Shown here: piece after piece, positions 10,202 through 17,970 of the stretch
Layout: the number at the start of each line of letters is the position of its first letter
Position numbering within the stretch: position 1 is the first letter of the stretch
The notes under the pieces: model-generated
What the model was told of the DNA's origin: nothing
Database searches by the model: none
Seen by the model: the letters and a program-made list of their open reading frames with translations, nothing else
Assembly: GCA_964419615.1 (NCBI GenBank)
Contig: CAYQPU010000008.1
Location: 996 to 49,760, forward strand
Origin: an uncultured Methanosarcinales archaeon
Lineage (GTDB): Archaea > Nanobdellota > Nanobdellia > Woesearchaeales > JAGVZT01
Length of the DNA stretch: 48,765 nt
Reading direction: 5' to 3'
Position numbers and translations under genes: made by a program

Positions 10202-10666
10202 TTAGTCTGCACACGTTCCTTCTAGCTTATGGCCATCTCCTGTGAATGTGTATGTTGCTGAGGTTTCGTCATCTGCATATGATATGCTCACATCAAGGCC
10301 AAATGAAGCTCCTGAACTTGTACATACTGAGCCTGCTGTGTCATGAAAACACTTTGAGGTTTGACCAGTTCCTAAACTTGAAGGTGTACATGTTAATGCA
10401 TTTCCTGCAACAGTGACTGTGTTAAGAGTTATACTGTTCACGAGATTATTTTGTATGGTAATATTAAGATCGTCTGTAGATGTAAATGCTGTATATTGAG
10501 GGACTGCTAGGTCACTTGTTCTCCAATATGATGCAGATGCTCTTCCAGCTGCCCCTGAACCAATTCCCGGGATTCCGCCCATAACTCCTACAACTATTAA
10601 AGCAATAATGATAACAACTGCAAGAATTATTAAATATTCAGTTGCTGTTTGAGCTTTTTTATTCAT
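10202..10666 (-). CDS. Type IV pilin (probable major pilin), class III signal peptide of QxSxE type
   Basis: MNKKA|QTATEYLIILAVVIIIALIVVGV; small, Gly/Ser/Thr-rich, 4 Cys; own TATA (10711-10718) and GAGGTGA SD. Confidence 0.9.
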   Translation of the reverse strand: MNKKAQTATEYLIILAVVIIIALIVVGVMGGIPGIGSGAAGRASASYWRTSDLAVPQYTAFTSTDDLNITIQNNLVNSITLNTVTVAGNALTCTPSSLGTGQTSKCFHDTAGSVCTSSGASFGLDVSISYADDETSATYTFTGDGHKLEGTCAD

Positions 10667-10808
10667 TAAATCACCTCTATTGTGAACTATTGTTTCTCAA
10701 TAATATTGAATTTATAAACTTTTTGCTTCTGCTTGTATTAGTAACTTATTATTCTTACTTAAACTAGTATTCAATAAATATTTATAGTATGTCAGTGTAA
10801 TAAACTGG

Positions 10809-11348
10809 ATGCAAAATAAATCAAAATCTTTTTTACTTATCTTCTCAGTTGCATTGTTGTGTTATGTTATTTTGTTTGGTGTTATATTAAATGAAAATAT
10901 ATCAAATTTACCCCCAGACCCAAAAAGAAATCTTAATACAAAACTACTCACTCATAAATTTGGAAATGTTACTCAAATTATTGGTGCAAAACCAGATGTA
11001 TTTTGGGTATTAGATGATCCCATAATATTTTACTCTGAAAAAGCCATACAAATAGTGCAAGTGGATGCAGATTTGGTGTGGCAGGATGCTTATTTACTAT
11101 CTCTTGCAGAAAAAAGGGAACTTAAATGGAAACCAATCAGATTAAAAGGAGATGAGAAGATTGAGGGGAGATGGTTTAAGAATACTGCTAAAACAGAATT
11201 CACTATAAACAAAGAGGATCTTGGAAACAGTGAAATCGATAGAGCAGGTGCCACAATTATTGCTTATTCATGCAACAAGAAAATAATTGGATGGGACTGT
11301 CACAATGACAAATGGATGATCCTTGTATTTGATATAATGGTAAAATGA
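10809..11348 (+). CDS. Hypothetical membrane-anchored protein
   Basis: N-terminal TM helix, C-terminal Cys pair; stop overlaps the methyltransferase ATG. Confidence 0.7.
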   Translation: MQNKSKSFLLIFSVALLCYVILFGVILNENISNLPPDPKRNLNTKLLTHKFGNVTQIIGAKPDVFWVLDDPIIFYSEKAIQIVQVDADLVWQDAYLLSLAEKRELKWKPIRLKGDEKIEGRWFKNTAKTEFTINKEDLGNSEIDRAGATIIAYSCNKKIIGWDCHNDKWMILVFDIMVK

Positions 11349-12211
11349 AATGTGTTCAAAAGTTTTATGATAAAACCCCTTTTCCTGACTTTGAATTAAA
11401 CAGGTTTAATTCCAAAGAAAGCTTAAGAGTTGCTGCGCATCCATTTGCAAAAATACTTGATAGATCTATTCCAGTAGATGCTTCTATTATAGATGTAGGT
11501 GCAGGAACAGGGCAATTATCTGGGTTATTGTCATTAAGAAGACAAATTGTTTACGGGATAGATTTTTCTGAAAAATCTTTAGATAAAGCTAGAGCTTTAA
11601 AAAGAAAGTTAAATTTGGATTCATTGCATTTAAAAAAAGTTGACATTATGAACACAAAGCAAATTGAAGGAATCAAGAATAAATTTGATTATCTTTTGTG
11701 TTTAGGTGTTTTGCATCATACACAAGATGCTTATCAAGCATTTAAGAATATTTTGCCATTGCTTAAACCAAATGGTATGATTGCAATTGGAATGTATAAC
11801 AAAATCGGCAGAGTGCCTTTGAGAATAAGAAAAATACTTTCAAAAACAATATTTTATAATAACAATAGAATAAAGGAGTGGTTTATAAAAATGCAAATAG
11901 AGAATACTAAAGATAAGGAAAGGGCAACAGGATGGTGGAATGATCAGTATTTGCATCCACATGAAACGACACACACAGTTGGAGAAGTCCTTGGATGGTT
12001 TAAAAAAAACAATATTAAATATTACCAATCAATTCCTTCACTTAATCCTTTTGATAATGATATCCTTGATATCAAAGGAGTATGGAATAGTCCAGCAAAC
12101 ATTTATCCTTATTTTCCACTGCGTTTCTATAAACAATTATCCTGGATTTGGAAAACTCATAAAGAAGGTGGATACTGGATAATGTTTGGGACAAAGTGTG
12201 AAAAAGGGTGA
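11345..12211 (+). CDS. Class I SAM-dependent methyltransferase
   Basis: IIDVGAGTG motif I, YGIDFS, FDYLLCLGVLHHT, LKPNG. Confidence 0.92.
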   Translation: MKCVQKFYDKTPFPDFELNRFNSKESLRVAAHPFAKILDRSIPVDASIIDVGAGTGQLSGLLSLRRQIVYGIDFSEKSLDKARALKRKLNLDSLHLKKVDIMNTKQIEGIKNKFDYLLCLGVLHHTQDAYQAFKNILPLLKPNGMIAIGMYNKIGRVPLRIRKILSKTIFYNNNRIKEWFIKMQIENTKDKERATGWWNDQYLHPHETTHTVGEVLGWFKKNNIKYYQSIPSLNPFDNDILDIKGVWNSPANIYPYFPLRFYKQLSWIWKTHKEGGYWIMFGTKCEKG

Positions 12212-12259
12212 GAATAAGGTAATGATTTTAAAACTGAAAAAAGATAATGTTCCTTTAAG

Positions 12260-12451
12260 ATGAAATGTAATTCAAAAAACAAAGCTATTCACATTTTAGG
12301 ATTTGTATGTGCCTACTTTTTGTTTAGTATAGTAACTTACTTAATATTTTATACTTTTGGAATCAAAAAAAACATAGGATTTGTGCATGTTTTTATTATC
12401 ACTTTCACTATTACCTTAATAGGTATTGCTGTTGACAAAATGATGAATTAA
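12260..12451 (+). CDS. Small two-TM membrane protein
   Basis: 63 aa with two hydrophobic helices, co-oriented within the cassette. Confidence 0.6.
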   Translation: MKCNSKNKAIHILGFVCAYFLFSIVTYLIFYTFGIKKNIGFVHVFIITFTITLIGIAVDKMMN

Positions 12452-12470
12452 TTAAAACAGGGAGATCATA

Positions 12471-12707
12471 TTGAACAATAAAAATTGTTTTGGGGAAGGG
12501 TTCAGAGAATTTGGAGTTAATATTTCTCAAACAGCAGTTTTCGTTTTATTGTCTCTTTTTTATTTTTCGATATTTGGAATCATTTCTCTTATTACAAAAA
12601 GAAAGTTTGGCTTAATATTTAAAAGATTAAACTCAAATAAAAAAACACACTGGGAGGATTGGGATTCACAAATAGAATCAAAGGATCGATTTTATAAGCA
12701 ATACTAG
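12471..12707 (+). CDS. SxtJ-like membrane protein (short form)
   Basis: TM segment LLSLFYFSIFGIISLI, then THW and terminal KQY, resembling the SxtJ C-terminal half; directly upstream of the carbamoyltransferase. Confidence 0.65.
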   Translation: MNNKNCFGEGFREFGVNISQTAVFVLLSLFYFSIFGIISLITKRKFGLIFKRLNSNKKTHWEDWDSQIESKDRFYKQY

Positions 12708-12711
12708 TAAA

Positions 12712-14463
12712 ATGTATATACTTGGCATAAGCTGCTACTATCATGACAGCTCGGCTGCACTGATAAAGGATGGAGTTATTGTAGCTGCAGCAGAAGAAGA
12801 AAGATTTAGTAGAAAAAAACATGATAATTCTTTTCCTAAAAAAGCAGTCACTTTTTGCTTGGAAAAGGGAGGAATAACAATTAATAGTATTGACCATATA
12901 GCATTTTATGAAAAACCAATTGTAAAATTCGAGAGAGTTTTAATGCAATTTCTTCACTATTTTCCAAAAAGTTATTTTTCTTTTGTAAAGTCAATGCCAA
13001 GTTGGTTAAGTCAAAAACTTATGCTGGTAAATAATATAAGAAAATTGGGTTATAGTGGTGATGTAATTTTTATTAAGCATCATCTTGCCCATGCTGCTAG
13101 TGCATTTTTAGTAAGTGGATTTGAAAAAGCTGCTATTGTTACAGTTGATGGGGTTGGAGAATGGAACACAACAGCTTTTGGATTTGGTAATAAAAACCAA
13201 GTTACTATGCATAAAAAGATTGATTTTCCCCACTCTCTTGGTTTGCTATATTCAACTATTACTGCCTATCTTGGATTTAAAGTAAATAATTCTGAATACA
13301 AAGTAATGGGGTTGAGTTCTTATGGAAACAAAAACAAACAAGAAAATCAGTATTATAAAAAACTTAAAAAAGTAATTAAAGTTTTGGATGATGGAAGTTT
13401 TAGCCTTGATTTGTCATACTTTTCATATCCTCACTCACTTAGAATGCCATCGAAAAGATTATGCAAGTTACTTGGAGGGAATATTAGGAAACCACATGAT
13501 CCAATAGCCCAAAGAGAAAAAGATATTGCATGTGCTCTCCAGATGATTTATGAGGAAACTTTATTTAAAATTATCAACTATGTTCATTCAAAATTTAAGT
13601 CGGGGAATCTTGTGCTAGCAGGTGGTTGTGCACTGAATAGTGTTGCTAATGGTAAGATACTTAAAAAAACACAATTCAAAAAAGTATGGATTCAACCTGC
13701 TGCATCTGATAGTGGTGGAAGTCTTGGCGCAGCATTATATACACACAACTGCATTCTTAAAAACAATAAAAGATCTATTCAAAACCATGTATACTATGGC
13801 CCCAATTATACCCAAGAATACCTTAGAAATTTTTTGGACTCAAATAATATCAAGTACTCCGTTTTTAAATCAAGTAAGGAGGTAATTAAAAACACTGCGA
13901 AGCTCATATATGAAAACAATGTTGTTGGGTGGTTTATGGGAAAGATGGAGTTGGGGCCGAGAGCATTAGGAAACAGGAGTATTTTAGCAAACCCATGTAA
14001 TCCAAATGCCAAGGAAGCCTTAAACTTGAAAGTAAAGCATAGAGAAAATTTCAGACCTTTTGCACCAGTTGTATGTGCTGAAGATGCAACAGAGTATTTT
14101 GAGTGTGATGTTCCTTTGCCAAAACCTACTGATTATATGCTTATGGTTTATCCAATTAGACCCAAATGGAGAGACAAGATACCTTCTGTATCTCATATTG
14201 ATGGAAGTGGCAGACTACAAACAATAAGAAGAAACCAGAATCAAATGTATTATGATCTGATCAAAGAATTTGGAAAATTATCTAAGATCCCTATTCTGAT
14301 TAATACTTCATTTAATATAAGAGGTGAGCCCATTGTTTGCACACCTCATGATGCCTACAGATGCATGATGGGAACTGAAATTGATTATTTAGTAATGGGA
14401 AAGTTTTTAATTTCAAGGAAAGATAATATAAGGGACATATGGGAAAGTGAAGGATATGATTAA
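12712..14463 (+). CDS. O-carbamoyltransferase, NodU/CmcH (SxtI/TobZ-like) family
   Basis: ILGISCYYHDSSAAL, AAEEERFSRKKHD, HHLAHAASAF, TVDGVGE, EYKVMGLS, AGGCALNSVANG, ELGPRALGNRSIL, KHRENFRPFAP, NTSFN. Confidence 0.96.
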   Translation: MYILGISCYYHDSSAALIKDGVIVAAAEEERFSRKKHDNSFPKKAVTFCLEKGGITINSIDHIAFYEKPIVKFERVLMQFLHYFPKSYFSFVKSMPSWLSQKLMLVNNIRKLGYSGDVIFIKHHLAHAASAFLVSGFEKAAIVTVDGVGEWNTTAFGFGNKNQVTMHKKIDFPHSLGLLYSTITAYLGFKVNNSEYKVMGLSSYGNKNKQENQYYKKLKKVIKVLDDGSFSLDLSYFSYPHSLRMPSKRLCKLLGGNIRKPHDPIAQREKDIACALQMIYEETLFKIINYVHSKFKSGNLVLAGGCALNSVANGKILKKTQFKKVWIQPAASDSGGSLGAALYTHNCILKNNKRSIQNHVYYGPNYTQEYLRNFLDSNNIKYSVFKSSKEVIKNTAKLIYENNVVGWFMGKMELGPRALGNRSILANPCNPNAKEALNLKVKHRENFRPFAPVVCAEDATEYFECDVPLPKPTDYMLMVYPIRPKWRDKIPSVSHIDGSGRLQTIRRNQNQMYYDLIKEFGKLSKIPILINTSFNIRGEPIVCTPHDAYRCMMGTEIDYLVMGKFLISRKDNIRDIWESEGYD

Positions 14464-15796
14464 GAAAAAGAAAATCAAGAAAAGAGGAATATCTAAAAGA
14501 AGTCATTTGAGAAGAAATCCCACTTATAAACGTTTAATCTTGCTTTTCTCCACGATAATTACTCTATTTTTCATATTTGAGATAGGTTTTAGAATTTATT
14601 ATTATTCAAATAATTTAACTTTGGGAGTAAGTGATGATGAAAAATGCTTTAAAGATGTAATGGCAGGATTACCTCACACAGAGAGTATGTACAGAAATTT
14701 TAGACTACTCGGATACCATGACATTGACCCATTTATTGGATTAACTATTAAATCAGGATTTAGGTTGGATGAAATAGAGGTTACTGAGATTGACAATAAA
14801 TTTTATAAAAAAGTTTTGTATGATTATCATCACAATGAACAGGGAATGAGAAATCTTAAAAATTTTCCTATTGAAAAATCACCTGAAAAAGAAAGAATTG
14901 CTCTATTTGGGGATAGTCTAACATATGGAATGGGTGTCCCATTAAAATCTGGAATGAGCTACTTAATGGGTACAATAGTTGCAGATGTAGAGGTATTAAA
15001 TTTTGGTGTTCCTGGTTGTGGTATTGATACTATGTATGCTAGATACATGTATGAAGGGAGGAAATATAAGCCAGACATAGTTGTTTTTAATGTTTATGTT
15101 GAAGACATCTCAAGACCTTTTACTAAATGCAAGTTATATACACCAAATGTTTTTATTAATAATAGTAAGATTAAAATTGGTGAAAGAAGATATGAAGACT
15201 TAAGGGATTTTTATTACTCATATGAGCCACCAAAGTTTGAAAGCTACTTTATTAAGGATACAGAGTATAAGATTAGTAGAATTGCTAAAAATAAAAGAAA
15301 TTTTGGTAAAGGATTACATTTGCTGGACATTATGCTTGATGATATTAAAGATAGAACAGATGAGGACTCAACAGTATTGATTGTTGGAGTCATAAGAGGA
15401 GATCATGACCATCCATTGTTGGACGAGTATTATCAAAAGATTATAGAAATGCTTAAAAGCAAAGATATTATGTATTTTGATTCTGCAGATTATTTTAATT
15501 CGGTTTCTCATCATTATAAGGATCAGTCTTTTTATTATATTGATGGAAATAATACAAAGGATCATTTCTCACCCATTGGCAATGGAGTGTATGCGCAGGG
15601 ATTGTTGTTGGAGTTAGATAAAGCTGGAGTGTTAAACATAACTACTGAATACCATTTTACTAACTTTGACTTACATGGACCTGTTTATTTAGTTAATAAG
15701 AAACATCCCAAAAACATCACTATTGTTTATGCAAGAGGAATTGAGGATTTGTCTTATGAAAACCAATTATTTCCTGCAAAAGGAGTAAATAACTAA
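14447..15796 (+). CDS. Membrane-anchored SGNH/GDSL hydrolase family protein
   Basis: N-terminal TM, IALFGDSLTYG block I, VLNFGVPG block II, DHFSPIGN block V. Confidence 0.85.
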   Translation: MKDMIKKKKIKKRGISKRSHLRRNPTYKRLILLFSTIITLFFIFEIGFRIYYYSNNLTLGVSDDEKCFKDVMAGLPHTESMYRNFRLLGYHDIDPFIGLTIKSGFRLDEIEVTEIDNKFYKKVLYDYHHNEQGMRNLKNFPIEKSPEKERIALFGDSLTYGMGVPLKSGMSYLMGTIVADVEVLNFGVPGCGIDTMYARYMYEGRKYKPDIVVFNVYVEDISRPFTKCKLYTPNVFINNSKIKIGERRYEDLRDFYYSYEPPKFESYFIKDTEYKISRIAKNKRNFGKGLHLLDIMLDDIKDRTDEDSTVLIVGVIRGDHDHPLLDEYYQKIIEMLKSKDIMYFDSADYFNSVSHHYKDQSFYYIDGNNTKDHFSPIGNGVYAQGLLLELDKAGVLNITTEYHFTNFDLHGPVYLVNKKHPKNITIVYARGIEDLSYENQLFPAKGVNN

Positions 15797-15800
15797 AAAG

Positions 15801-15884
15801 TGGTGCAGAGGCTGATCCCCACTGAAGCTTTCAGCTACGCTGAAAGTTAGGAACGTAAGTGAGATAATGTGGGGTATTAAACCA
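15801..15884. repeat. Intergenic palindromic element (nested hairpins)
   Basis: TGGT...ACCA ends; CCCCAC(15817-22)/GTGGGG(15869-74) stem enclosing CTTTCAGC-TAC-GCTGAAAG (15828-46). Confidence 0.6.
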
Positions 15885-15924
15885 GTAAAATTTTCGATAA
15901 TAAAAATAGTGTAAGCATACAAAA

Positions 15925-16086
15925 ATGAGTAAAAACAAACCAATATTTAGGGATTTATTAGATTTTATTTGGGAGAATAAAGCCTGGTGGCTTTTACCAA
16001 TTGTGATTTCGCTATTGTTGCTTGGGTTGTTAATAATTATTAGCCAGAGCAGTCCAGTCTCACCTTTTATTTATGCTCTATTTTAA
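15925..16086 (+). CDS. DUF5989 (SxtK-like) small membrane protein, 53 aa
   Basis: Manual translation MSKNKPIFRDLLDFIWENKAWWLLPIVISLLLLGLLIIISQSSPVSPFIYALF*; KxWWLxP...PFIYxLF signature; not in track. Confidence 0.88.
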   Translation: MSKNKPIFRDLLDFIWENKAWWLLPIVISLLLLGLLIIISQSSPVSPFIYALF

Positions 16087-16100
16087 GATTTATTTAAGTT

Positions 16101-17084
16101 TCAGCTTAATCCAATCAAGAATTTACCAACCAAATTAACTGTGATAAAGTATATTATTAAACAACTGAACATTATGGTGGGAACGTACTTTAAACCAGAT
16201 TTTGGTTCTCCTTCGTTTATCACACCTAATAAAGTTGATGAGAGTATTGATGTTATTACTAACACTGTTATTGATATTTTTTTTAAGAACAATGGAGTGA
16301 TTACAATTTCACCTAGCAAGAATCCCATTCCAAATCCTGCACTTTGAGCAGATGTTTGAACTTGCATGTCTGATATCATTTGAACAAAGTTTACAGAAAT
16401 TGCTAAAAGTAAAGGTGCACCAATTATTATTGTAAACATTATGAATGCTGTATAGGTTTTTGTACTTGACCTTAATTCACTTTCTAGAGCATGTGTTTCA
16501 GATATGTCCGCTGCAATATCTTCTAATAAGGTTGCCAAATTACCACCACTTTTCATAGCAGTTGTAAATAGTTTTAAGGATCTGTCTAATACATCTGATC
16601 TAATTCGGGTTGATATTCTGAGTAATACACTTGAGAAAGATTCTGTTCCTAAACCTCTGGATGTTGCATATTTTATTTCTTCTGCCAAAGGACCAAGGTC
16701 ATCTCTTGCTGCTTCTCTTAACGCCTTATAAGGTGTCATCCCTGCTCTAAGATTTGCTGCTACTATTTGAAAAGCATCAGGAAGAGATGATTCTACTTTT
16801 TTTGTTCGCTCTTCTACTTTAAAGAATACACGCAGGTAATTTAGTATTTGAACCATAGTAAATAAACCTATGGCTATGATCACAATAGTTAATGTGTCAA
16901 AAAAAAACAGTGAGATTAATGAGGATACCAAACTTAAAATAGTCCCAACAAAAATTCCCTTACCTAGCCAGATGTATGGATTTTTCTTTAATCCTGAAAA
17001 GACCATGAGATCTTTAAAGTCCTTTCTATACTTTTTTGGGTAAAGTTTCGCCAAGTTATAGTATAGTCTTTGGATGAATTTCAT
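16101..17084 (-). CDS. Type II secretion system F / TadC-like pilus platform protein
   Basis: LPDAFQIVAANLRAGMT, GPLAEEI, SGGNLATLLEDIA, multiple TM helices. Confidence 0.9.
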   Translation of the reverse strand: MKFIQRLYYNLAKLYPKKYRKDFKDLMVFSGLKKNPYIWLGKGIFVGTILSLVSSLISLFFFDTLTIVIIAIGLFTMVQILNYLRVFFKVEERTKKVESSLPDAFQIVAANLRAGMTPYKALREAARDDLGPLAEEIKYATSRGLGTESFSSVLLRISTRIRSDVLDRSLKLFTTAMKSGGNLATLLEDIAADISETHALESELRSSTKTYTAFIMFTIIIGAPLLLAISVNFVQMISDMQVQTSAQSAGFGMGFLLGEIVITPLFLKKISITVLVITSILSSTLLGVINEGEPKSGLKYVPTIMFSCLIIYFITVNLVGKFLIGLS

Positions 17085-17085
17085 T

Positions 17086-17970
17086 TTAAAATTGTACTAC
17101 CGGCCTCCTTGCTCTGATAAATCCTATTATGATGTACTGAACAATAAAACATGTAACAATGAAAGCAACAAATGATACTTTCCCTATTCCTAAACCTGCA
17201 AAGCTTGACAAAATGATTAACATGACTGCACCAATTGTTGGGACTGCTACTGCAAACAACATGTAAATCAAGTTCCATAGGTTTAGTTCATGGGCATAGT
17301 CTTTGATTTTTGACTTTTGATCTGCTGAAAGATCTTTTACTATTAATTTTAAGGCGCTTTTTAAGCTTGAACCTGATTTAATGGAATTTATTAACTGCCA
17401 GATCGTTCTTTTTAGATATTCTGATTTTGTACTTAAGGCCATGTTTTCTAGGGCTACATGAATTGGTGTTCCTGTTTTTACTGTTTGAGTTATCCTTTTA
17501 AACTCCTTTGATACTGCACCATAACCAGCATCTGATATGTTAGCAAGACCATTGTACAATGGAACACCTGAGCTTACTTGTAGTTGGAGATCTCTGACTG
17601 CAAACACTAAATTTTTATCAATATCTTCTGCTTTTTTCATTGCAGTTATTTTTGGGTAACTTACAAGCGCATATGTGAACAAAAGAAGGATTGCTAGACT
17701 GTAAAGAAAACCGGTTTTTAGTGATTCTAAGAGTGGATCTCCCTTAAATGTGAGGCTCAGAAAGAATAATAGTATAAAGAATATAAGCCATGTAAAGATA
17801 ACATTAACCATAACAATGGCAATGTACTCAAAATCTTCTAATTCTATTGCTGCTGATTTTAGATTTTCTTTAAGACCAGATATTGGGATTTTCAAAGCTA
17901 GTGGGAATAAAGGTTTTGATAGTTTTTTGGCTAATCCAATTGGAATTAGCATTAAAGGAGATTTATTCAT
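17086..17970 (-). CDS. Type II secretion system F / TadB/TadC-like pilus platform protein
   Basis: IDKNLVFAVRDL...SSGVPLYNGL...YGAVSKEF; TM helices; tandem with 16101-17084. Confidence 0.9.
   Translation of the reverse strand: MNKSPLMLIPIGLAKKLSKPLFPLALKIPISGLKENLKSAAIELEDFEYIAIVMVNVIFTWLIFFILLFFLSLTFKGDPLLESLKTGFLYSLAILLLFTYALVSYPKITAMKKAEDIDKNLVFAVRDLQLQVSSGVPLYNGLANISDAGYGAVSKEFKRITQTVKTGTPIHVALENMALSTKSEYLKRTIWQLINSIKSGSSLKSALKLIVKDLSADQKSKIKDYAHELNLWNLIYMLFAVAVPTIGAVMLIILSSFAGLGIGKVSFVAFIVTCFIVQYIIIGFIRARRPVVQF

Follow-up and report, generated by a model that had tools for sequence, protein, structure and literature searches.

Introduction

Enzymes of the TobZ family carry out an ATP-dependent activation of carbamoyl phosphate, and to our knowledge all characterised relatives of the carbamoyltransferase described here (TobZ, NovN, GdmN) act directly on their substrates, with no relay in between. 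We likewise know of no role assigned to SxtJ or SxtK since the saxitoxin cluster was described. In that cluster the carbamoyltransferase measures about 600 aa, SxtJ about 135 aa, SxtK about 54 aa and the GDSL enzyme about 426 aa (PMC2679770); SxtL is annotated as a decarbamoylase (PMC2679770). A carbamoyltransferase, CgnI, is likewise part of the crocagin cluster (PMC10070186). A tyrosine acyl-shuttle motif, FxYxxF, is found in DltX and PatA, where the acyl groups go to the SGNH partners DltD and PatB (PMC12148441).

Here we analyse a window (the whole stretch of DNA under study, 48,765 nucleotides) from an uncultured archaeon of the Woesearchaeales, contig CAYQPU010000008.1, whose host genome is reduced to 1.48 Mb. 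Positions 10809-16086 hold seven plus-strand genes, all present as open reading frames and lying between minus-strand tadC-like and pilin genes, just as the initial annotation had described them. The features of the locus are as follows.

10202-10666 (-), pilin-like gene, 154 aa, with a class III signal peptide (Pfam Class_IIIsignal, 4.8e-4); context
10667-10765 (-), retained pilin upstream region with the TTTATAAA box (10711-10718); left insertion edge
10770-16090 (+), inserted 5.3-kb block, whole, with approximate breakpoints
10809-11348 (+), mem179, N-terminal TM anchor and outside domain; no Pfam family
11345-12211 (+), SAM-dependent class I methyltransferase (Methyltransf_31, 1.5e-18)
12260-12451 (+), j, 63-aa protein with two predicted TM helices; no Pfam family
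12471-12707 (+), J, 78 aa, corresponding by hhalign to the C-terminal half of SxtJ (PF19588)
12712-14463 (+), O-carbamoyltransferase (CT) of NodU/CmcH/TobZ type, 583 aa (Carbam_trans_N, 8e-81; Carbam_trans_C, 1e-69)
14447-15796 (+), SxtL-like SGNH enzyme, TM-anchored (Lipase_GDSL, 7e-6, weak)
14915-14917 (+), Ser157 of the SGNH enzyme
15563-15565 (+), His373 of the SGNH enzyme
15925-16086 (+), DUF5989 (SxtK-like) microprotein, 53 aa, one TM (PF19451, 4e-20)
16066-16083 (+), C-terminus of DUF5989, F48-I-Y50-A-L-F53, with Tyr50 at 16072-16074
16101-17084 (-), TadC/T2SSF-like pilus membrane gene (T2SSF, 3e-16); context, right insertion edge

Results

The block is an insertion between tadC and the pilin gene

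Three genomes of the same genus or family (G001, of the same genus, G003 and G004) have the pilin gene directly after tadC, lack the block and are otherwise collinear in the flanks. Because tadC abuts the pilin gene in these relatives, the 5.3-kb block is an insertion, seen in the studied genome only. The initial annotation had expected this synteny of a cassette placed inside a pilus locus. In G001 the TadC orthologue is 81% identical and the pilin orthologue, 89% identical, lies 126 bp after tadC; 10667-10765 aligns to the intergenic region between the two, with homology ending at about 10760-10800, and the TTTATAAA box in this segment is a putative promoter element of the pilin upstream region. 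On the other side the stop of the TadC-like gene is 14 bp from that of DUF5989, and the T2SSF/TadC-like genes found with Pfam together span 16101-17970 (-). The GC content of the block is that of its flanks, and no convincing case of a target duplication or an integrase was found at the block.

We conclude that a self-contained O-carbamoylation module of the sxtI/J/K/L type, together with an accessory methyltransferase and one further anchored protein, arrived here as a lineage-specific insertion. The identity of the cassette and the incidental nature of its insertion are, taken jointly, highly probable.

Components of the module

Profile searches confirmed Carbam_trans_N/C, DUF5989 and Methyltransf_31, all of which had been anticipated; the weak Lipase_GDSL match is backed by conserved motifs and by the AF2 fold. 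By sequence the CT is a member of the NodU/CmcH/TobZ O-carbamoyltransferase family: both of its domains score far above the cut-offs, and residues 8-572 give full-length matches to solved structures (7xb6, 1.5e-103; NovN, GdmN and TobZ, about 1e-80). Invariant in 14 homologues are H123, H127, D146 and D333 together with the KxKxRE and NTSFN motifs (K440/K442/R444/E445 and N531-N535), which, mapped onto TobZ residues, we take to be the metal-binding HxxxH...D...D and the YrdC-like nucleotide/carbamoyl-phosphate motifs. The CT shares with TobZ, NodU, CmcH, NovN and GdmN the Kae1-like N and YrdC-like C domains, alignment over the full length and both sets of invariant motifs, for metal and for nucleotide. 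Whereas these relatives act by themselves on soluble substrates, genes of the subfamily found here nearly always stand with those for the membrane partners SxtJ and DUF5989. The CT has no TM helix and is predicted to be cytoplasmic. As for the donor, a source that the initial annotation had proposed to look for, carA and carB, is present in the host genome; since neither carB nor arcC was found in 9 of 16 module-positive relatives, the carbamoyl donor is uncertain in general.

The SGNH enzyme has a basic N-terminus and a TM anchor (residues 26-44), with its catalytic domain predicted outside; an N-terminal TM helix occurs in 39 of 40 homologues, with 4.2 K+R on its N side versus 1.7 on its C side. 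Across 38 homologues G155 and H373 never vary, and S157 shows at least 90% conservation (GDS block and block V His). The AF2 model (pLDDT 74.8) has an SGNH fold, and its top structural hit, CgnD, comes from the crocagin cluster (8a2n; Z 22.9, rmsd 2.8 A over 237 residues; next match Z 16.8). The likeness to CgnD includes the N-terminal beta sub-domain, but sequence similarity is weak (E 7e-7), and in assays CgnD behaved as a slow leader peptidase. The model is no closer to DltD or PatB than to ordinary esterases, PatB standing at rank 50.

The gene at 12471-12707 had been called SxtJ-like. It has no Pfam or NCBIfam match at E<=10, yet the profile of its archaeal orthologues aligns to residues ~62-137 of bacterial PF19588/SxtJ (hhalign, 98.5% probability, E 2e-15); as this is the C-terminal half, J is, on the strength of the profile, half an SxtJ. 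The bacterial partner proteins carry PF19588 or the name 'SxtJ family membrane protein'. J has one TM helix with 1.9 K+R before and 4.1 after it, and the basic tail is predicted to be cytoplasmic. The upstream protein j stands where SxtJ would have its N-terminal half but aligns with that half at an hhalign probability of 10%, so that only J, not j, is demonstrably homologous.

DUF5989 ends in FIYALF-COOH, which agrees with the acyl-shuttle motif of DltX and of MBOAT proteins. Of 98 homologues, 92 terminate precisely in F.Y..F (32 of 34 from archaea and 60 of 64 from bacteria). With 3.7 K+R in the N flank and 0.02 in the C flank, the positive-inside rule predicts an N-in/C-out orientation. By the predicted topologies Tyr50 would share the outer side with the SGNH domain, and the SxtJ tail would lie in the cytoplasm.

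The methyltransferase, whose start overlaps the stop of mem179, has orthologues in 5 of 400 genomes of the order. Because four of the five lie within 5 kb of such a CT, three of them embedded in the module, it is a rare accessory that belongs with the module. The earlier view of a membrane-associated cassette for carbamoyl and methyl tailoring is supported. mem179 has one TM helix (residues 9-27) and only distant homologues (at most 33% identity), found in 19 of 400 genomes as a C-terminal domain within larger proteins; among the archaeal module loci it is not a conserved member.

Comparison with sxtI-J-K-L and distribution

The module has the same four families as sxtI-J-K-L at similar sizes, SxtK and SxtL being compared by family and size. 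DUF5989 and the SGNH gene lie in the same gene string as the CT, and the adjacent J corresponds to SxtJ by profile, in its C-terminal half. The commonest bacterial order, CT-SxtJ-DUF5989(-SGNH), is that of the sxt genes. The window differs from it in its order j-J-CT-L-K, in a presumed SxtJ spread over two ORFs (two-TM j and one-TM J), in the added methyltransferase, in its DPANN host and in having no other sxt genes.

The block is a genuine, non-random unit: of 22 archaeal loci with complete flanks, 9 share its core order j-J-CT-SGNH-DUF5989. Among these 22, J is found in all, DUF5989 in 19, the SGNH gene in 19 and a j orthologue in 18; among 60 bacterial loci, J is found in 56, DUF5989 in 50 and the SGNH gene in 30. 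In the archaeal arrangement the CT, SGNH and DUF5989 genes are tightly coupled, with stops and starts often overlapping. Four of five bacterial genomes with CT-J-K and no adjacent SGNH gene carry the same SGNH family elsewhere. About one in four of the Woesearchaeales searched has the core: a CT at E<=1e-50 occurs in 132 of 401 genomes of the order (roughly 95 with at least 55% identity) and DUF5989 in 17 of 60 relatives. In bacteria the module reaches more than 20 phyla, and its immediate neighbours there are heterogeneous. The initial annotation knew of no system of this kind in DPANN archaea; this holds for the literature searched, where we also found no mention of DUF5989, yet the cassette is common in Woesearchaeales. 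A bacterial origin had been thought probable as well. The CT of the window nests within a Woesearchaeal clade, and the proximate donor was therefore archaeal.

Discussion

We infer the chemical steps, the acceptor and the crossing of the membrane by the carbamoyl group as follows. The cytoplasmic CT would use ATP to activate carbamoyl phosphate supplied by CarAB, while the split three-helix SxtJ (j and J), its basic tail in the cytoplasm, would hold the CT at the membrane. The carbamoyl group would pass to Tyr50 in the FIYALF end of DUF5989 at the outer face, and the anchored SGNH enzyme would take it on Ser157 and deliver it to a hydroxyl group on an acceptor outside the cytoplasm. This acceptor would most likely be a surface glycan, N-linked or built by GT-C enzymes, that is also modified by the methyltransferase. 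The tyrosine relay itself, for which the conserved motif, the predicted topologies, the conserved Ser and His of the SGNH enzyme and the SGNH genes carried elsewhere in four of five bacterial genomes speak, is a tentative proposal that we rate somewhat below an even chance; the explanation as a whole, an incidental insertion together with a relay to a surface acceptor, is the best that we have and stands at about even.

On the one hand, the module resembles the Dlt (DltB/DltX/DltD) and PatA/PatB systems in its one-TM microprotein ending in FxYxxF outside, its N-terminally TM-anchored SGNH enzyme and its cytoplasmic ATP-using activating enzyme upstream. On the other hand, it has neither an MBOAT/AT3 protein nor a carrier protein, its membrane partner would be the small three-TM SxtJ, and it would move a carbamoyl rather than an acyl group, in a system known here from its genes. 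No MBOAT or AT3 domain was found in the seven proteins or among the top neighbour families of three neighbour sets; the module is therefore not a member of the MBOAT/AT3-SGNH pathways and at most works in a similar way, and how a cytoplasmic CT would load an outside tyrosine, with no channel of that type in or near the module, is unexplained. Further observations speak against this explanation: just half of the bacterial modules have an SGNH gene alongside, the SGNH model stands no nearer to DltD and PatB than to common esterases, and CgnD, the closest solved structure, and SxtL both belong to small-molecule pathways.

The first of these is also consistent with tailoring on the cytoplasmic face, whereby the CT, tethered by SxtJ and DUF5989, would carbamoylate a lipid-linked glycan precursor or a membrane-proximal molecule before it is flipped, and the SGNH enzyme outside would be an independent esterase that trims carbamoyl or acyl groups, in the way that SxtL is proposed to decarbamoylate. 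The SxtL annotation (PMC2679770) fits this reading, as do the hydrolases that rank highest in structural comparison with the SGNH model and the lack of a channel protein within the module. That TobZ, NovN and GdmN manage without a relay also counts in its favour. It leaves unexplained, however, the near-invariant outside C-terminus of DUF5989 and the tight coupling of the CT, SGNH and DUF5989 genes in the archaeal j-J-CT-L-K order, and we consider it rather unlikely, though the strongest of the alternatives. Carbamoylation of a secreted or imported metabolite, as by SxtI on saxitoxin or CgnI on crocagin, would agree with the confinement of the studied occurrences of the gene set to natural-product clusters and with the closeness of the SGNH model to CgnD (Z 22.9) of the crocagin cluster (PMC10070186). 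Yet neither the block nor the surroundings of the relatives' modules hold scaffold-forming biosynthetic genes, the host genome is reduced, and a soluble metabolite would not require three of the four core proteins to be anchored in the membrane; this reading is very improbable.

The initial annotation had the module decorating pilin or S-layer glycans. Near the modules of relatives, genes for epimerases, GT2, PMT_2 (GT-C), DegT and GT1 are moderately enriched, at small counts, and the genome carries AglB and about 10 PMT_2 genes. The cassette would add carbamoyl and methyl groups, quite possibly to cell-surface sugars; that the acceptor is a glycan we rate at about even. A cassette co-opted to modify the neighbouring pilin or the glycan on it, its position reflecting co-regulation, would account for the block lying physically between tadC and the pilin gene, for the one N-x-T sequon read from the pilin translation and for the A24-like (prepilin-peptidase family) gene adjoining the module in G001 and at locus L036. 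But about 308 kb around some 40 other archaeal modules contained neither homologues of TadC, the ATPase or the pilin nor any class III signal protein, with about 1.5 expected; the block reads from the other strand and converges on tadC; the A24-like gene, a divergent paralogue, comes in a group with radical-SAM/SPASM genes, the canonical A24 peptidase being elsewhere; and the contexts of the bacterial modules are unrelated. In G001 the module sits away from the pilus locus. The pilus loci of G001, G003 and G004 lack the block and some 40 other archaeal modules lack pilus genes, which is, as far as pilus genes go, the outcome that the initial annotation had named as refuting its view. The block does not show the conserved co-location of a pilus-locus accessory and is best read as no part of the pilus machinery; its position looks accidental, the proposed functional tie to the pilus finds no support, and a dedicated role there is highly unlikely.

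The tempting view of the cassette as a pilus component is thereby corrected, and what the locus offers is a natural insertion, with approximate breakpoints, indicating that the module moves as a unit, methyltransferase included. It also supplies what looks like a naturally split SxtJ, and since its host offers few other pathways to consider, the hunt for the acceptor can be narrowed. The core is a widespread, unstudied gene set that also lies within saxitoxin clusters, and its tyrosine motif gives a concrete hypothesis, testable by mutation. It is possible, if doubtful on the sequence evidence at hand, that CT-SxtJ-DUF5989-SGNH is a new kind of transmembrane carbamoyl transfer that dispenses with MBOAT/AT3 proteins, has a DltX-like tyrosine microprotein pass the group to an SGNH transferase outside, and decorates surface glycans in DPANN archaea, CPR bacteria and many other phyla. 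If so, SxtJ, SxtK and SxtL would have to be given new roles in the making of saxitoxin, and perhaps CgnD in that of crocagin.

A widespread sxtIJKL-type module

Seven plus-strand ORFs fill positions 10809-16086 of the window, which lies on contig C8 of a 1.48 Mb, 99% complete genome. The gene cassette read there in the initial annotation is borne out by these ORFs and by Pfam, which supports four of the seven (methyltransferase, carbamoyltransferase, DUF5989 and, weakly, SGNH); the 179-, 63- and 78-aa proteins had zero matches in direct Pfam and NCBIfam scans. The cassette is flanked on the left by a pilin-like gene and on the other side by a pair of T2SSF/TadC-like genes, after which comes a T2SSE ATPase.

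Cassette genes and left flank (window positions; letters denote genes in gene orders)
10202-10666, minus: pilin-like gene with class III signal, left flank
10809-11348, plus: 179-aa anchored protein; no Pfam or NCBIfam family
11345-12211, plus: class I SAM methyltransferase (MT); Pfam 1.5e-18
12260-12451, plus: 63-aa ORF with two TM helices (j); no Pfam or NCBIfam family
12712-14463, plus: two-domain O-carbamoyltransferase (CT); Pfam 8e-81 and 1e-69
14447-15796, plus: SGNH protein (L); weak GDSL Pfam match, 7e-6
15925-16086, plus: DUF5989 protein (K); Pfam 4e-20

Full-length alignments link the carbamoyltransferase to the solved enzymes 7xb6, NovN, GdmN and TobZ, and it retains all residues invariant across 14 homologues; its public relatives carry the labels Woesearchaeota or Nanoarchaeia. 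The seventh ORF, of 78 aa (J), has bacterial homologues of about 137 aa that belong to PF19588, some of them named 'SxtJ family membrane protein' by NCBI. An archaeal-only profile of the 78-aa protein aligns with residues ~62-137 of a bacterial-only SxtJ profile (98.5%, E 2e-15). Most bacterial SxtJ proteins have three TM helices; in the window the two-helix ORF precedes the one-helix ORF, and their sum is three. The 63-aa protein reaches an hhalign probability of only 10% against the N-terminal half of SxtJ, and hence we claim no homology between them. The two-ORF arrangement is kept in 18 of 22 archaeal loci, and therefore the split is not a frameshift artefact.

Among relatives of the same order, DUF5989 is found in 17 of 60, and a carbamoyltransferase at E <= 1e-50 in 132 of 401 genomes; of the latter, a count in the table gives roughly 95 with >=55% identity, and the best reaches 67% identity to the window. 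Where the module is flanked by 2.5 kb or more on both sides, J is encoded in 22/22 archaeal loci, and DUF5989 and SGNH in 19/22 each; their most frequent gene order is that of the window, j-J-CT-L-K (9/22). The bacterial loci come from over 20 phyla: 56/60 have J, 50/60 DUF5989 and 30/60 SGNH, and CT-J-K(-L) is the order seen most often. CT-J-K-L is the order of sxtI, sxtJ, sxtK and sxtL in the saxitoxin cluster, with matching gene sizes (PMC2679770). A query with DUF5989 turned up no protein bearing the name SxtK. The direct neighbours of bacterial modules are heterogeneous (GT2 5/115, methyltransferases 4/115, many unrelated genes), indicating that the module is an autonomous unit. Glycan genes are moderately frequent beside archaeal modules (of 136 neighbours, epimerase/dehydratase 4, GT2 4, PMT_2 4, DegT 2, GT1 2), and radical SAM genes are also frequent there (6/136). 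The genome carries a second, distant carbamoyltransferase paralogue (L071, G000:C17:683-8420) that has no SxtJ or DUF5989 partners and neighbours an amine oxidase, an asparagine-synthase-type amidotransferase and a GT2 glycosyltransferase.

The methyltransferase has orthologues in just 5 of 400 order genomes, yet of those five, four are found no more than 5 kb from a carbamoyltransferase belonging to the window's family and three sit inside the module, for instance as J-MT-CT-K; the methyltransferase is thus a genuine, if rare, module accessory. The 179-aa anchored protein has distant relatives only, which correspond to C-terminal domains in larger proteins, and shows no linkage to the module elsewhere, either in a profile search of 39 loci or in the order genomes. 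Its C-terminal ~100 residues recur in proteins of 300-1090 aa from 19 other Woesearchaeales genomes, and look like an unnamed surface-protein domain. Taken together, these genes make the cassette a further example of an sxtIJKL-type module that is both widespread and uncharacterised; here SxtJ is split and a methyltransferase has been added.

Insertion into the pilus locus from a Woesearchaeal source

In the comparison with related genomes that the earlier reading proposed, tadC adjoins the pilin gene without the cassette in a relative of the same genus (G001) and in G003 and G004, which represent two further genera of the family; in all three the ATPase-tadB-tadC string runs straight into the pilin orthologue. 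The tadC-pilin gap in G001 is 126 bp and the downstream genes are the same as in the window; from an alignment of this intergenic region with the window, the breakpoints fall at ~10760-10800 and 16087-16100. About 100 bp upstream of the pilin are retained, including a TTTATAAA box, a region that we infer to be the pilin promoter. By gene order the block is thus an insertion in the pilus locus, since a single gain is more parsimonious than at least two precise losses. The GC content of the block equals that of its flanks, and a search at the block for an integrase, a target duplication or convincing terminal repeats found none. An imperfect 27-nt inverted repeat (70%; 10796-10822 / 16087-16113) sits exactly at both edges; we reject it as the mark of a mobile element and regard it as probably due to chance, because it is one of 197 such pairs and its right arm falls partly inside conserved tadC sequence.

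A bacterial origin had been suggested for the cassette. For the proximate event the phylogeny does not support this: in a FastTree phylogeny of 128 carbamoyltransferases the Woesearchaeal sequences, the window's included, form one clade (support 99), and IQ-TREE on 64 rows gives the same picture (SH-aLRT 89, inner clades 98-99), with the window on a long branch within the clade and without a resolved sister. Given this position, the proximate donor was a Woesearchaeal-type genome, not a bacterium. A near-identical donor was sought in 400 order genomes, and the best carbamoyltransferase identity was 67%. The base of the IQ-TREE phylogeny is a polytomy with bacterial clades, for which reason we reject any stated direction of ancient transfer. 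Carbamoyltransferases from contigs labelled Nealsonbacteria (L036), Saccharibacteria (L103), Fibrobacteres (L049) and Gammaproteobacteria (L095) nest within the Woesearchaeal clade at 56-63% identity to the window, reflecting either DPANN-to-bacteria transfer or mis-binning; in L036, moreover, SxtJ is split into j + J as in archaea. Unpublished genomes enter one tally of relatives (G006), the carbamoyltransferase tally of 401 genomes (G138, G215, G372, G376), the tally for the 179-aa protein (G118, G307, G372) and, through locus L083 of G215, the FastTree rows; the conclusions are independent of all of them.

The pilus association does not generalise

Is the position of the cassette informative about its function? 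When profiles of the window's proteins were run against 39 loci retrieved on the basis of DUF5989 or carbamoyltransferase matches, the module proteins recurred, whereas the ATPase, TadB, TadC and pilin had zero recurrences. A class III signal regex, calibrated on the N-termini of the window's own class III proteins, gave 0 matches against ~1.5 expected in the 308 kb of sequence that surrounds 40 archaeal modules. The G001 module, split across two short contigs, lies outside the pilus locus, beside orthologues of genes on contig C2 of the window's genome. The pilus association of the cassette therefore does not generalise. The initial interpretation is borne out in part: a tailoring cassette is supported, a tie to the pilus is not, and where the cassette lies tells little about what it does.

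A four-gene cluster is conserved in the window's genome (G000), in G001 and on the Nealsonbacteria-labelled contig:

G000:C2:21289-24561 (outside the window)
L084:8-2986
L036:4967-8085

Its products are a membrane peptidase that is A24-like but divergent, a pair of small proteins (~150 and 81 aa) and a radical-SAM/SPASM enzyme. In G001 and L036 the cluster adjoins the carbamoylation module; several further radical-SAM genes precede it in G000. The A24-like gene was considered as a second pilus link and rejected: it is a borderline, divergent paralogue that comes packaged with radical-SAM/SPASM genes, and the genome has its canonical A24 peptidase on a different contig.

A possible carbamoyl relay, its donor and its acceptor

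DUF5989 proteins end exactly in F-x-Y-x-x-F in 32/34 archaeal and 60/64 bacterial sequences, with Tyr at position -4 in 97/98; the window's protein ends in F48-I-Y50-A-L-F53. DltX and the C-termini of MBOAT proteins share the motif FXYXXF, in which the Tyr hands an acyl group on to Ser in an SGNH partner, DltD or PatB (PMC12148441). By analogy, a carbamoyl group might pass via Tyr50 of DUF5989 and then Ser157 of the membrane-anchored SGNH enzyme to an acceptor outside. DUF5989 is predicted to be N-in/C-out by the positive-inside rule (K+R 3.7 vs 0.02, n=98); by the same rule the SGNH domain would lie outside and the SxtJ tail inside. The SGNH protein has a very basic N-terminus followed by a single TM helix; in its homologue alignment G155 and H373 never vary, and S157 is conserved at >=90%. 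The SGNH family is present elsewhere in 4/5 bacterial genomes whose module has no adjacent SGNH gene.

Against such a relay stand the absence of any MBOAT or AT3 protein with the module and the outcome of the fold search. The AF2 model of the SGNH protein (pLDDT 74.8) has an SGNH fold, and PatB is no nearer to it than are esterases (Foldseek, VIA), so that the search does not separate transferase from hydrolase; DltD is not among the matches listed, which carries no weight. The top match, and by far the closest solved structure to this SxtL-like protein, is CgnD (PDB 8a2n; Z 22.9, next 16.8), reported to be a very slow leader peptidase of the crocagin cluster, the only crocagin-like cluster encoding a carbamoyltransferase (PMC10070186). 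CgnD may be the SxtL-type partner of that carbamoyltransferase.

With regard to the donor, carA and carB, proposed earlier as a check, lie side by side on contig C45, and from this gene content the organism should be able to make carbamoyl phosphate. Neither carB nor arcC (carbamate kinase) shows up in 9 of 16 module-positive relatives; several of these nine are 99-100% complete and one is closed. Among 60 relatives carB occurs in 7/16 with the module vs 10/44 without, an association too weak to be used as evidence. As for the acceptor, the host encodes AglB and about ten PMT_2-type GT-C enzymes, which makes glycans outside the cell plausible acceptors of the module's carbamoyl group.
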